From Microgenomates bacterium OLB23 (GTDB lineage: Bacteria > Patescibacteriota > Microgenomatia > UBA1406 > HO2-37-13b), in NCBI GenBank assembly GCA_001567245.1, contig LMZU01000016.1, positions 467 through 64,466 on the forward strand: 64,000 nt of DNA. The letters are read 5' to 3'. Positions within the stretch are counted from its first letter, which is position 1. Each line of letters starts with the position of its first letter. Shown here in pieces: positions 21,001 to 30,000 of the stretch. A program made the position numbers.

Positions 21001-24000
21001 GTAAAGGCGACGAAGATTATGACCCTTCTCTTGACATTAATCAAGATGGTTGCGTGTTGCTCAATGATTTAAATGAGTTTCCAGAATATTAACCCACTAT
21101 ATAAAGCACTTGACAAAGCGTTTTTTAAACTCGTAGAATGGTACCATGGATAAAGTAGAAACAGACATTCAAGAATTCCACACACTTCACCCTCAAAAAA
21201 AGCTAAAAGTTCTTGCCATTATTGCCGCTATTTTTATTGCAAGTGTTGCAGGCGGGCTTTATTTTTCTACAAAAAGCAATACCCCATCTACAACCACAAA
21301 AGATTCTGAAGCCCCAAAGGGAACTTCTCAGCTTATTATGCAACCTGAGACTTTGAGTATTACAAAGGGTCAAACAATTAAAGTAAGCGTTATGGTAAAA
21401 GATACAGGCTCACAAGCTACAGACATTGCTATTGGCTACGATCCAAAGCTTGTTGAAGTATCTAACATAGTAAACGGCGATGTCTTCCCCGATATGCTGC
21501 GCAGCGAAATAGTAAACAACCAAATTATAGTTTCAGCAGCAGTAGACCCCAACAATCCTAACGACATAAAAACAGGAACCGTTTTTTCGTTTATGCTCAA
21601 AGGCCTCACCACTGGAGAAGCAACTCTTACGTTTGATAAAGATATAACCATAGCGGCAACTAACGGAGTTAACACTCTGGGTAGCGCTGAACCAGTAACC
21701 ATTACCGTTAAATAATGAACGTATTGCGAACAACAAATCGACAACGAGGCGAAGTTGCCTCTTTTCTAACCATTGTTTCAATGGTCGTACTTTCGTTAGG
21801 TCTTTTTGTAGGTTATAGACTCAACAGCAGCACTGCAACTATTAACCCCGCTCCACAAGCCGCAGGCCCAGCTATTTCACAAGCAATCCCTGCCGATGGT
21901 GTAGATCGTCATGATCAGGTATGTTTCCCTGGTGGAGACAAAAACCAGCAAGTTCGTGACAAGTTTTGTAGAACACGTATGTACCCTTCAACTCTTTTAA
22001 GAGATACCATTAAGCGAGCAGATTCTCGTGCAAAACGATTGTTTGAAGCAATATACAGTGGAACAGAACAGTCTAAACCCAACCCAGCAACTACTGTTAT
22101 AACCGAAAAAGACCAGCGAACCGTGCGTTTATATGGCGGACTCTGTCTTAATCGCAGTTCTCTAGAAGACACAAAACTACAAACTAGTGACGTAGAAGTC
22201 TACGTTAGTTTGTTTGGCGTAAGAAAGTTCTACGACAGTAAAAACCAGGTTGGCATTGAAGAACGAGACATAAATGAAGTGCTTCGCTACAAAATTGCTG
22301 CTGCCGAAGATAAGTTGGGCTCTGACAGCGACGACACGCTTTTTCCTGCACAAGCTCGCCGAGATATATGTACATTTACCAATGGCGCAGTTGATGCAAC
22401 TGACTATCGCTCCACCGATAACCCTCTTCTTTTTTCTATTCAAATGGCTAAAGCAAGCATAGAGAGTGCAATCGAACGTGCAAAAAAAGACTCTACAATT
22501 CAGCAAAAGTTTGACACTAAAGAGTGCTCTGTGTACATTCACCTGCGCGATAACATTGCAGCGGGCGCTGCACAGGGATCCACAGGCAGCAAACCCAAAG
22601 ACACATATAATATATACAAAGTAGATTTGCGAGATGTGCTTGGCAAAGAGGCAGAGACTATTTGCCCGCCAGTCACCGCTACACCAACCCCACCAGTGAG
22701 TACAAGCCTACCCTCAACCCTCAACACCCAGCAAGTAACTGTAACAGTAACACCTCCGCTTGGCGCACGATGTTTTGAAAAATGTACACCAAGCACGGTA
22801 TGTGCAAAAGATCCTTCTACAAAAGGCCCCTTGCTCTGCTATAATGCCGATGGATTAGGCGGTTTAAAGCCTTTCCCTACTACCGTTGATGCCCGCGAAG
22901 ACGGCAGCCTTGAGCCAAACACAGAAAACCTTACCCTTTGCGCACCTGGCGACAACAACTGTCTTTGCCTTCCAACAAAATGCCAATTTAACCCAGCGCT
23001 CTGTAAAACCAAGCTCGATGCTTGCCCACAATCGGTTACGCCTACAATTACCATATCAGTGACACCACCCACTACCATTACCGTTACTCCACCAACTGAC
23101 ACCCCCACAAACCCTCCACCATCAATCACAACCTACCCTGAGGCATGTACATTCGACGCAGTCGCATACGTACAAGAGTGCACCACCTTTGATCAAAATG
23201 GTCAATGTAAAAGAGGCACAGATGGCCGCTTTATTGCAAGGAGCATAGATGTGGGTAATCTAGGCTTGGCATGGGGTGCAAGCAACAACAAACAAATCGC
23301 GGGTGGACGATATGGCTCTGAACCAGCAACACCATTTAAGTATTTGCAAAACACATTCGTTGGAGCACTTGATTCGCTTAAGGCACGCTTCCCCTATTTG
23401 GCGAGCATTGGCATAAACGAGCTCACCTTTATAGATCACAAAGCCGAAGTTCCCCTTCAACCTGGAAAGAATCCGCTTGAACCTGGGTCTGCAGCTGACT
23501 TAACACCAGAAGGTAGAGCAAAGAATCCAATCCTTATAGACCCATTTAATCAGCACCCAAGCGAGCAATACTTTAACCGCGAAACAGCGCAAGTGCGCCT
23601 GTATGCAGACTTTGCTAACAATGGCTATCGTATAGTACCCGAAGGTAACGAAATTCAGTCATGTATTAATACTCTTACTGGCACACCACTTGGTGCCTGC
23701 GACTTAGCTTCATTCCAGGCAAATCGTGTAAATGAAACACTGCGCCCTGGTACTCCAGATTCGGTTGGCCGTGATCCTCGCGACACCATCGATGGTCTAA
23801 CAGTAGGATGTGGACAAAACATAGTCTACGGCTGGACACTGCAAAAATGCAACAATGAGCCTGCAGATTATGTGTTTGTAATAGATGTATCAACCTCAAT
23901 GAGTACAGGCAAAGACCTCTCTGGTGACCTAAAAATAGATGCAGCAAAAAAATCTATTAATGCCTTCCTTACTACAATTAGTACATTCAGCAAAGATAGC

Positions 24001-27000: not shown

Positions 27001-30000
27001 ACAAGCGGACTAACTTATAAAGAAGGAACCTGTATAGAGTGTGGCCTGCAAACAACATTAACCTTCCTTCAAAATGAGCGACAAGACAAGTCGCGCCGGG
27101 TGGTGGTTGTATTCCTTACAGACGGCCTCCCCAACAGTGACCCCGGCGCACCAAAAGCTGGCGGGTATGAGGGAGATATTGCTGCAGTCGCAGGCAGGCT
27201 TAAAGCTCTTAATACTGCAGCAACGGGTAATGTGCCCCCAACAGTTATTGGTATTGGCTATGGAGATCCTAACTTTTCGGGAGCACCCCAACCAGGAGAC
27301 CTTGTTAATGCAGAGCTTATTAGAGTCATAAAGCTCTTCACCACCGATGACACATGGGCCTTCTCTACTGCTGCAAACGTAAGTATTACAGAGGTATTCA
27401 ATCGTATTCAACAAAGCCTTAACTCGTGTGCTCTAAACGAAAAGCTGCATGCTGCATTTGTAAAATCTAAAGATGTCAATAACGATGGTATTATTAATAC
27501 AGTTGACCTATTTGCACTGTACGATGCGTACTTTCAAAAAGGTACCAACCTTGCTGGCGATCTTAACCAAGACGGGATCATTAATTCTCTTGATATCTCA
27601 CTCCTAATCGGTGATCTGGGAACAGTAGTCGAACCAGGCACTGAACAATGAAACACCTACTACTTGTATCGAGCATACTCATCGTCGCATTCGGCATATT
27701 GCTAGGATTTATTTTTTTTGCAGGCAGATACACCTATTGCATTGCTTTCTGAAGCCAGCAACACTAATAGTGCAGCCTATTATTGCCCTGTAGATATTAC
27801 CCTATACGTACACGAGCAAGATACATTAGGTCAGCAAGTTCCACTTTCGCTAGAGAGCTACCCAGAGCTTGATTTAATGCAATGGAGCATTACTACAAAT
27901 AATGCACAGTCTGCTCCCCTATATTTTAATGAGCTTCCACTTATGCAATATTCTGCAAAAAATACTTTTTTGTCACTTGTAACAGACCCAAAACAGGCAG
28001 ATATGTTTGCTAAAAAAGATGTTGCTGCATTACAGCTTAACTATCAATCTGATCTTTTTCGCGTTGTAAAGCAAGAGGTAGTTACCTGCGCATCTGCAAC
28101 ACAACAAAACCTGTGCAACACACAAACAGAAGATGAAAGTAACAATCAGCAACAGCTTACTACGCTCTCCGCTACAATGGATTGCGGTATGAAGCTTGTG
28201 GCTGGCTGGGTTGTAGAGAAAGTTGCAACAAACACATCACCATCATCAGCCACTACGGCTACCACTATTGTTCAATGTGATCTTAATAGCGACGGGGCCT
28301 GCAATACATTTGATCTGTTTGTAATATTAGACACATATGGGAGCAAAGGTTCGGGGCTTAATGGAGACCTAAACAATGATCAAGCTGTTAATGCACTCGA
28401 CTACACCCTTATGACAAGTCGAATTTCTCTCTTGTAATATATACGCTTCTTATCTAGAATGATCTTATGTACGTGGTAAAAACTGCGATTATATCTGTTG
28501 CTGTAGCTTTGTGTGCAACTTTTATTATGATCGGTGTGGCTTATGGACAGTCTAAACCCGAAATTACCTACATCAAAAATTCTGACATTGGGTTTACCAT
28601 ATCTGATCTTACCCCTTCTCGTCAGTGGGACTATATTGCAAGCACTAACTTTTGCTTTAGCTTTAACCCACCCACCGCAAATGGCAGTGCGGCAGTTCAG
28701 GTTACTATGGAGCTTAAAGACAAAGCAAACCCGTCTTCTACAGTAGAGGAGGTCATTGGGGCATCTGTTAATCAGCTCATTACTAATCCTTCTACTGTGC
28801 GTTGTGGCTCTAGCACGCTCCGCAGGCTTACAGCACAAGCGCCTTTCAACATACCACCCCAGGAACGATGGGTTGAGGCATGCCCACGCATAAAGGTAAA
28901 AGTAGTCACAAAAGGGCCATGGCGACCATTTCCGCAAGAAGATGTAGCATATATAGAAAGAAGTTTTCTATGCCCAGACGGCATAGTTACCACAGCGCCT
29001 ACCGCAGCACCAACCACCCCTCCTTCTACCCCTTCTCGCATTCCATTTAGGCCCCGACCCACTACAATACCGCCTACGAGCACTCCAACACCAAATGTAA
29101 ATGCTATTGAAGGGCGTATTACTGTGTTTTCTTGTGCACAACCAGAAACTGTAACGCTAAGCTACTGTGATGATCCTTCTGGAGCAAGCTGCGCTGATCT
29201 TAACCTAGCCACCACACCACAAGATCAGGCAATTTGGCTTGATGATGAAACAAATGAGCGCACATTTATATATAAGTACCGTATTACAAAAGATAAGTCG
29301 GGTAATGCGCTTGATCCGTCTAAAACATATTCTGTGTTTAATGCAAATGCCCGCATCAAGCGTTTTTAAAGATACTAATATAGAGTCATTTGCATCATTA
29401 AAAGAAGATAAAAAAGAAGTTCGCGTACCTGGTAGTCGTGATTTGAGCATATATGCCGCCGCACAAACCTGCGCGTGTGTATTTCATGCACGTGCCCATG
29501 TGCGCGATGCAGATACCGGAGAAATAACCACAGCACTAGATGAGCAGCTAGTGCCAGGGAAAGATCTTACTTTTGGTAGTGCCAACGATATGCAAATTGC
29601 CACCAGAGGAGATAAACCCGTAAGCCCTTTTACTAATGGTGTGCTCGATGTGCTCGAAAGCCTTCATGATATTAACTATAGTAATGAGGTAGGGCCTTGG
29701 ACTCCCTATGGTACCGATGGCACTGCCCACGTGCGCCTATATGCTCCCGGATACACCATTGTAAAGCAGCGCTGCCAAACAACAGCAGCCAGTCAGGTGC
29801 ATGCATGCCCCGATGGTAAATTAGAAGAAGAGCTTACCCCCCGAGATGACCGTAACTTTTTTGGCTTTAGAGTTGCCTGTGGCGTAGACGTTTCGTATGA
29901 CTGGTATATTAGAAAGAACCCTATCGCAAATGCAGAAGGATTTAATGTAACTAAACCCGAAGATGTAGACATAAATAACGATGGCTTTATTAATACAGCA

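Follow-up and report, generated by a model that had tools for sequence, protein, structure and literature searches.

A conserved N-terminal helix signal on cohesin-paired vWA-dockerin adhesins of Microgenomates bacteria

Minor pilins that bear a vWA (von Willebrand factor A) domain are known, as in the TadG/CpaL/KilN proteins and the PilB of Streptococcus sanguinis (PMC12075869, PMC11870444). Here two proteins of comparable outline, p1 and p2, are described from a stretch of 64,000 nucleotides of Microgenomates bacterium OLB23 (assembly GCA_001567245.1, contig LMZU01000016.1, positions 467 to 64,466 of the forward strand), which is called the window throughout. Both combine an N-terminal hydrophobic helix with a vWA domain and a C-terminal dockerin, and a sequence-only reading had taken their N-termini to be Tad-like. 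The two genes and the cohesin genes that precede them are:

21715-24726, + strand: p1, a vWA-dockerin adhesin of 1003 aa (open reading frame (ORF), Pfam and homologues)
25359-27651, + strand: p2, a vWA-dockerin adhesin and paralogue of p1, in two ORFs, 25359-26615 and 26578-27651 (Pfam, intact orthologues)
21146-21715, + strand: membrane-anchored cohesin partner of p1, 189 aa, with a conserved cytoplasmic tail, one transmembrane helix and a cohesin domain (weak Pfam Cohesin match, E=0.0043, PF00963 17.7 bits, below cutoff; synteny)
24778-25332, + strand: membrane-anchored cohesin partner of p2, 184 aa (PF00963 26.8 bits, above cutoff; synteny)

TadG, CpaL and KilN resemble p1 and p2 in having a basic residue and a Gly before the N-terminal helix, and in being large, extracellular, presumably adhesive proteins with a vWA domain and its metal ion-dependent adhesion site (MIDAS). 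However, p1 and p2 do not match PF13400 or PF07811, have no tad genes nearby, and carry a dockerin paired with a cohesin. In the TadG, CpaL and KilN proteins the hydrophobic alpha1N helix continues directly into a beta-stranded pilin head of about 120 residues, to which the vWA domain is attached (PMC12075869, PMC11870444); in CpaL and KilN this module packs on the helix, whereas p1 and p2 have a variable Pro-rich linker in its place. The PilB of S. sanguinis is like p1 and p2 in that its cell envelope is of the monoderm type and that it joins an N-terminal helix to an adhesive vWA module, but it has a canonical class III signal, a pilin module and a gene in the pil locus (PMC12075869, PMC11870444), none of which is found for p1 and p2. 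The sugar-binding proteins of the Sulfolobus bindosome, which are cut by PibD, are similar to p1 and p2 in their basic, small, hydrophobic layout, in lacking an acidic residue at +5, and in being large non-pilin surface proteins. The bindosome, though, is archaeal and needs PibD and the Bas assembly genes, whereas p1 and p2 have no linked assembly genes and do have a second conserved site.

Two further kinds of system are relevant. In Gram-positive cocci the YSIRK-G/S signals, and in autotransporters the extended signal peptide region (ESPR), are family-conserved signal peptides on large adhesins, and are thought to direct the place or the speed of export and not just its occurrence. The N-termini of p1 and p2 have no sequence similarity to them (no Pfam match), and differ in a hydrophobic region of transmembrane length and in a candidate cleavage site that is unusually distant. 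Cellulosome-type display, in which secreted dockerin proteins are held by anchored cohesin scaffolds, has the same C-terminal type I dockerin and the same arrangement of same-operon cohesins anchored by a transmembrane helix or by LPxTG and sortase. It differs from the present locus, where a vWA adhesin is carried along with other proteins that are not enzymes, the bacterium belongs to the Candidate Phyla Radiation (CPR), and cohesins and dockerins come in one-to-one pairs with no multi-cohesin scaffoldin. The system combines known kinds of element: cohesin-dockerin display, vWA adhesins and conserved signal peptides.

The N-terminus shared by p1 and p2 reads M-x(10-11)-QRG-E-[VI]-A-S-x-LTIVSM and includes a hydrophobic helix of 22 residues. 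p1 starts with MNVLRTTNRQRGEVASFLTIVSMVVLSLGLFVGY, or, written in parts, MNVLRTTNRQRG-EVASFLTIVSMVVLSLGLFVGY, and p2 with MKIFSRSTTGQRGEIASLLTIVSMLVITAGIIVGT, or MKIFSRSTTGQRG-EIASLLTIVSMLVITAGIIVGT. The sequence-only reading had already pointed to QRGE[VI]AS.LTIVSM and a hydrophobic helix in both vWA proteins; this is confirmed, with M-x(10-11) as the length of the leader. It had also likened to these the start of a third protein of the operon, p3, which is MKLSNFNSRGSVVGMLVAGVSVVALVATVIGV, or in parts MKLSNFNSRG-SVVGMLVAGVSVVALVATVIGV. This likeness stands in a looser form: p3 reads M-x8-RG-S-VV ... G+21 ... S-D-A at +33, a degenerate version of which the elements [RKQ]-G-S-[VI] and G+21 are kept in orthologues. 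When all six frames of the window are searched for [RKH]-G followed by 20 uncharged residues, p1, p2 and p3 are the only real ORFs with the pattern. The motif is absent from the window's other cohesin and dockerin proteins, whose anchors or signal peptides are of ordinary kinds. The segments concerned are:

21715-21750, + strand: p1 leader, M1-G12, basic (R5, R9, R11), ending in the invariant Gly
21751-21819, + strand: p1 conserved hydrophobic helix, E13-R35, with E+1, [VI]+2, A+3, L+6, T+7, S+10, M+11, G+17, G+21 and Q/N+23
25359-25466, + strand: p2 leader, M1-G13, and conserved helix, E14-R36
30128-31954, + strand: p3, a different protein of the dockerin operon, in which the signal is degenerate (ORF, orthologues)

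Positions are numbered from the invariant Gly, which is set to 0 (G0). Over 20 representatives the residues are conserved as follows:

position -1: R or K, 18/20
position 0: G, 20/20
position +1: E, 18/20
position +2: V or I, 20/20
position +3: A, 17/20
position +6: L, 18/20
position +7: T, 18/20
position +10: S, 15/20
position +11: M, 16/20
position +17: G, 20/20
position +21: G, 20/20
position +23: Q or N, 17/20

G+17 and G+21 form a GxxxG pair. Conservation along the helix is periodic at 100 degrees (index 0.51) and marks out a face of small residues at 0/3/7/10/14/17/21, which comprises G0, A3, T7, S10, G17 and G21. The motif is kept in all 23 representatives with a complete N-terminus; where it seems to be missing, the protein begins within the helix or downstream of it and appears to be N-terminally truncated. 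Among six divergent members the mean pairwise identity is 57% from G0 to +23, compared with 33% for the whole protein, 35% for the vWA domain and 49% for the dockerin. A generic signal anchor, alike in two proteins only because of their recent common ancestry, could be imagined here, given that p1 and p2 are paralogous and that their N-terminus matches no known family. This explanation is contradicted by the persistence of the motif, which is conserved better than any other segment of the protein and is kept between members that are only 28-35% identical overall and whose N-terminal domains are of three unrelated types; hardly any weight is left to it. The N-terminal motif is well beyond chance and is not a generic anchor.

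Similarity to the Tad and pilin families was sought with hidden Markov models. No match was obtained at E<=10 with PF13400, PF07811, PF07963, PF04964 or the NCBIfam pilin models, whether whole proteins, the 62-residue N-termini or 13 aligned family N-termini were used, and the p3-type N-termini likewise gave no match at E<=10 to the four Pfam models. With the same tool, control fragments scored 57.4 and 55.9 bits for PF13400 (TadG-like), 79 for PF07811, 41.8 for PF07963 (PpdD-like) and 75 for PF04964; these controls were consensus-like typed fragments of 53-61 residues, and not database sequences, and demonstrate no more than the tool's ability to pick up such motifs at that length. The PF13400 model covers the Gly, the helix and, after it, a segment of the type D.G...LQ.A.DAAALA, and this Tad-type motif after the helix is absent from the family N-termini. 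The hallmark of PF07811 is G-x4-E-[FY] at the start of the helix; the motif G....[VIL]E[FY] does not occur in the six frames of the window, nor do canonical prepilin, Flp or TadE motifs in any frame. Signals of the YSIRK, Tat, lipoprotein and archaellin types were also considered, and gave no Pfam or NCBIfam match.

Bacterial pilins are nearly always acidic at +5 (PMC4371748). In the present family the residue at +5 is L, F or M, and the only acidic residue is at +1 (20 representatives). There is no pilin head contiguous with the helix. The stretch that follows the helix is a low-complexity linker rich in P, T, S, A and Q, which reads Q/N-x-[NST] and then becomes Pro-rich, and the first Cys of the next domain comes 31-62 residues after the helix in all but one of the 23 representatives (in P0020, the outlier, a Cys follows the helix at a distance of one residue). 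An AlphaFold2 model of residues 1-260 of p2 (mean pLDDT, the predicted confidence score, 73) has a helix at 12-39, a low-confidence stretch at 36-52 (pLDDT<50) and then a separate beta-domain:

25515-26020, + strand: first extracellular beta-rich domain of p2, residues 53-220, pLDDT about 88-93 (AlphaFold2)

A Foldseek search of this domain against the PDB gave no significant match; the best (E=0.038) were generic immunoglobulin-like folds, and no pilin was among the top 50. No type IV pilus or Tad family was found among the ORFs of at least 150 aa in the window, and no pilus genes in the syntenic loci of at least four divergent relatives, including Woesebacteria-type ones. By these tests the N-terminus is not a Tad or pilin module and the protein is not a TadG fusion. 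Of the Tad-like reading, the layout holds, that is, a basic leader, a Gly, a helix of about 22 residues and a vWA domain downstream, as in proteins of the TadG/CpaL type. The same reading would have fallen back on a generic signal anchor if no Tad or pseudopilin similarity was found; the similarity is indeed missing, but the conservation described above does not fit a generic anchor. For annotation, this means that "RG plus helix plus vWA" alone is no ground for a TadG label.

A second conserved motif lies beyond the helix. The sequence [PST]-x-Ala is present in 23/23 representatives, with the Ala at +35 to +38 from G0; in 15 of the 23 the position is exactly +37. At -3 there are 12 representatives with Pro, 7 with Ser and 4 with Thr, and Pro is never found directly after the conserved Ala in these 23, although the linker is rich in Pro. 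Other registers, including the conserved Ala as the -3 residue, were rejected, as position +1 would then be Pro or position -1 would be charged. Four p3 orthologue N-termini, taken from related loci, read [RKQ]-G-S-[VI] ... G+21 ... [STV]-x-A, with the Ala at +33 to +35. In p1 and p2 the motif lies at:

21853-21861, + strand: second motif of p1, P47-Q48-A49, with Ala at +37; candidate signal-peptidase site
25500-25508, + strand: second motif of p2, P48-L49-A50, with Ala at +37

The adhesin genes are also tightly associated with cohesin genes. An orthologous cohesin gene stands directly upstream of the adhesin gene in 16/17 loci, with a gap of -1 to +26 nt, and the sole exception lies at a contig end. 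In the window the stop codon of the cohesin gene 21146-21715 overlaps the p1 start by 1 nt. In the cohesin partners, with orthologues in loci L001-L019, a fairly conserved transmembrane helix is preceded by a cytoplasmic motif, D.Q[DE]F[HN].L[HQ]P..[RK]K[LI], that is conserved at the N-terminus, and no conserved site comes after the helix. A conserved cytoplasmic tail without a conserved site after the helix is as expected of a true anchor, and the motif is a hint of a partner inside the cell, or of some regulatory contact that the anchor makes. About 15 kb around p1 and p2 consist of a series of cohesin and dockerin genes, one of the cohesins having an LPETG tail, and this whole block is syntenic as far as Woesebacteria. 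The adhesin family is thus tied to cohesin/dockerin genes rather than to pilus genes.

We favour, with a probability of about 0.4, a specialised, family-specific and bipartite Sec-type signal that is cleaved at [PST]-x-Ala, after which the adhesin is held by its dockerin on the cohesin encoded upstream. It builds on observations: the two motifs and how well they are conserved, the domains present, the pairing of the genes, and the failed Tad and pilin tests. The signal would have four parts: a basic leader ending in Gly-Glu, a 22-residue helix with its N-terminus inside, a polar spacer of about 15 residues, and the [PST]-x-Ala site. The helix would target the adhesin to the membrane and hold it there transiently, possibly at a particular place or beside a partner, until signal peptidase cuts after the conserved Ala. 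The released adhesin would comprise a variable N-terminal domain, a Cys-rich region, a middle domain and the vWA domain, and its C-terminal dockerin would bind the cohesin of the membrane protein encoded upstream. It is from these observations that we infer the topology, the cleavage and the cohesin-dockerin pairing.

Several lines of evidence lead to this preference. A protein that retained an anchor of its own would have no need of a dockerin, and the [PST]-x-Ala site is found at a fixed distance in all 23 representatives and again in the unrelated p3 family. Other exported proteins of the window pair long hydrophobic regions with sites of the S-x-A↓Q type (SRA↓QQ, SKA↓QL, SAA↓QS and SKA↓SG, 6-12 residues further on). 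A giant FG-GAP protein that has its own C-terminal anchor has a similar helix followed by an ordinary TGA↓V site. Finally, the cohesin gene directly upstream of the adhesin gene, the synteny of the block out to Woesebacteria and the anchor-like build of the cohesin partner count in its favour, as do the high conservation of the helix motif, the negative Tad and pilin models, and the variable linker with no pilin head after it.

The giant protein is one of two giant surface proteins, unrelated to the adhesins, met in a scan of metagenomes, at L010 1552-6294 (- strand, 1580 aa) and L020 412-6867 (- strand, 2151 aa). Both start M-x(4-8)-KRGEVAVLLTLVLM...G21 followed by TGA↓V, the same helix motif on another family, and at the C-terminus each has a transmembrane helix and a basic tail; the L020 protein has FG-GAP repeats and a beta-helix. 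A gene for an AAA_14/DUF4143 ATPase neighbours a giant-protein locus.

Of a class I signal peptide, which has small residues at -3 and -1 soon after the hydrophobic part, the basic n-region and the hydrophobic h-region are both present. Other features of the N-terminus weigh against cleavage at [PST]-x-Ala. The candidate site lies 14-17 residues past the helix, which is farther than is usual for signal peptidase I, and the residue at -3 is Pro in 12 of 23 members, which is disfavoured by the classical (-3,-1) rule. Moreover, a helix of 22 residues that has a GxxxG and a conserved face of small residues has the look of a permanent, packing transmembrane helix rather than of a disposable signal, and a Gly after a basic residue is also a requirement of prepilin peptidase. 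Two alternatives deserve to be set against the cleaved signal. One is that the helix is an uncleaved signal anchor with its N-terminus inside, so that the adhesin would be anchored twice, by the helix that stays in the membrane and by the dockerin as a second attachment, forming a closed loop on the cell surface. The small-residue face and GxxxG would then pack with themselves or with the transmembrane helix of the co-encoded cohesin. The transmembrane length of the hydrophobic stretch fits this well, as do the invariance of G0, G+17 and G+21 within the heptad-like spacing already described, the greater conservation of the helix than of any extracellular domain, and the fair conservation of the helix of the cohesin partner. 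It would, however, make the dockerin redundant and leave the fixed-distance [PST]-x-Ala unexplained. Dual anchoring, which the sequence-only reading had raised, therefore stays a live rival on account of the packing look of the helix, albeit an unlikely one.

The other alternative, to which somewhat less belief can be given, is that the proteins are class III prepilin-like. Here a PilD-type peptidase would cut after the invariant Gly (Gly12/Gly13) on the cytoplasmic side, the helix would act like alpha1N, and the adhesin would become part of, or be attached to, a fibre of the type IV or Tad-like kind or a bindosome-like array, with dockerin and cohesin as an extra tether. Class III signals are defined by their layout and not by their sequence, namely by a charged residue at -2, a small one at -1 and the length of the hydrophobic domain, and many archaeal ones lack the acid at +5 and occur on non-pilin proteins (PMC4371748, PMC2910488). 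Such a layout is present: a leader of 7-22 residues, R/K at -2 in 18/20 and Gly at -1 in 20/20 (in cleavage-site numbering), then 21-22 residues that are uncharged apart from Glu+1, about 21 of them hydrophobic, and then Q/N. vWA-bearing minor pilins do exist, as outlined at the start, and CPR bacteria generally encode type IV pili and PilD (PMC6744442), so that a PilD-type cut may occur. Against this stand the lack of any similarity to the pilin models with positive controls, the lack of an acidic residue at +5, the Pro-rich linker and, in p2, the beta-domain with no pilin match where a pilin head would be, and the absence of pilus genes from the window and the syntenic loci examined. In addition, G0 is in register with the conserved face of the helix and a second conserved site follows it, neither of which is expected of a class III signal. 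The pilus-type adhesin of the sequence-only reading thus survives in its weakest defensible form, as a doubtful alternative.

Between the helix and the dockerin, the domain content of p1 and p2 is as follows for p1, and the vWA and dockerin noted earlier in both proteins are confirmed by Pfam:

23146-23850, + strand: conserved Cys-containing middle domain of p1, residues 478-712, CxFxAxAYVQEC ... VGCGQNIVYGWTLQKC (alignment, BLASTP)
23872-24414, + strand: vWA domain of p1, residues 720-900, with MIDAS DxSxS (D724, S726, S728) (PF13519 5.7e-16, PF00092 1.9e-11)
24517-24690, + strand: C-terminal type I dockerin of p1 (PF00404 1.1e-06)

The vWA domains score 59.5 and 44.9 bits in p1 and 55.5 and 40.8 bits in p2 with the two models (PF00092/PF13519), above the cutoff, and residues D724, S726, S728, T802 and D831 (p1 numbering) are invariant or nearly so. 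The dockerins score 29.2 bits in p1 and 31.8 bits in p2 with PF00404, for which the cutoff is 22.9. An AlphaFold2 model of full-length p1, made from an alignment of 13 sequences, has a mean pLDDT of 57.6 and is reliable only in the vWA domain, where the pLDDT is 80-90; Foldseek with this model returned only generic vWA matches (SpaC, ANTXR2, BatB). The middle domain matches no Pfam family. Its pattern, CxFxAxAY[VI] ... VRLYA ... VGCGxN[IV]xYGW, recurs ahead of the vWA or dockerin part in several operon proteins that differ in other respects, and in p1 the domain is weakly shared with dockerin proteins that have no vWA domain (BLASTP E=1e-4 for 30128-31954 and 5e-7 for 29239-30141). A resemblance in 27718-28437 was judged by eye only.

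The reading frame of p2 is broken by a 1-nt shift, and the second ORF holds the vWA domain and the dockerin:

26594-26599, + strand: A6 homopolymer, site of the 1-base frame shift in p2

The p2 orthologues in relatives are unbroken, at about 850 aa, so that the break is either a sequencing error or a recent lesion. Further genes appear to be split (19724-20251/20290-20541, 28467-29369/29239-30141, 30128-31954/31920-34001 and 34796-36229/36147-36764), and a DUF2207 protein at 53084-54921 (- strand) lies in three ORFs. The split set includes p2, the LPETG-tailed cohesin and several dockerin proteins. The many split genes, together with the intact p2 orthologues, suggest assembly indel errors or ongoing gene decay.

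The surroundings of the pairs are conserved as well. In relatives the order of the block is an S8 protease, an LPxTG-cohesin, a small dockerin protein, a transmembrane cohesin, the vWA-dockerin protein, further dockerin proteins, a 7TM-transglutaminase-like protein and ATP-grasp enzymes. The flanks are shared with distant relatives (L022, L023), with a fervidolysin-like S8 protease on one side and the 7TM-transglutaminase-like membrane protein and ATP-grasp on the other; in the window the flanking genes are at 13736-15888 and 37138-40993, and there are three ATP-grasp enzymes. The S8 protease, 7TM-transglutaminase-like and ATP-grasp genes may belong to the same surface system, through processing or peptide modification. 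Two cohesins of the window carry LPxTG-type sorting signals, LPRTG at 5228-5851 (- strand) and LPETG at 20290-20541 (+ strand), and a sortase gene is present at 61366-61836 (+ strand). Since both are encoded, the organism seems to combine sortase-anchored with membrane-anchored cohesins.

The family is small and belongs to the CPR (Microgenomates). A word-indexed search gave 12 homologues, some of them named Roizmanbacteria or Woesebacteria by their sources, and an exhaustive phmmer search of 1.84 billion representative proteins gave only 26 at E<=1e-30. When two degenerate DNA motif patterns were run against 185,579 GTDB species genomes, the family was found in 7 species and all other matches were chance internal ones; the scan of metagenomes with the motif patterns yielded nine more family loci and five chance matches besides the two giant-protein loci. 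Among the seven species is OZ246401.1 (L004/L006), a complete chromosome of 938,475 bp labelled "Gammaproteobacteria", which carries the operon and has about 74% DNA identity to parts of the window. It is one of several public metagenome-assembled genomes labelled "uncultured Gammaproteobacteria" that carry the CPR-type operon (L004/L006, L001, L002/L005, L027, L036), and these labels look wrong. Searches of the literature gave no description of the adhesin family, nor of adhesins in Microgenomates that use cohesin and dockerin.

A life attached to other microbes is presumed for CPR bacteria, and little is known of their means of attachment beyond type IV pili. The locus is a conserved, Microgenomates-restricted surface module of one-to-one pairs, in which each membrane-anchored cohesin goes with a vWA-dockerin adhesin and each adhesin has the same N-terminal signal. 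A bolder and rather improbable proposal is that the basic-Gly-Glu helix, the GxxxG at its end and the [PST]-x-Ala at its fixed distance together are a novel sorting signal for surface proteins of CPR bacteria (perhaps also of DPANN), which would be read within the membrane by a dedicated factor, such as a PilD-like peptidase or a partner helix, and would gather a few adhesins in an ordered attachment organelle, braced by cohesins, for clinging to host cells. If the signal directs a particular route of export or assembly, it would offer a way to track down the other parts of the attachment apparatus. In that case it would also be, after the YSIRK-type signals, a second example of a signal peptide that carries more information than the instruction to export.

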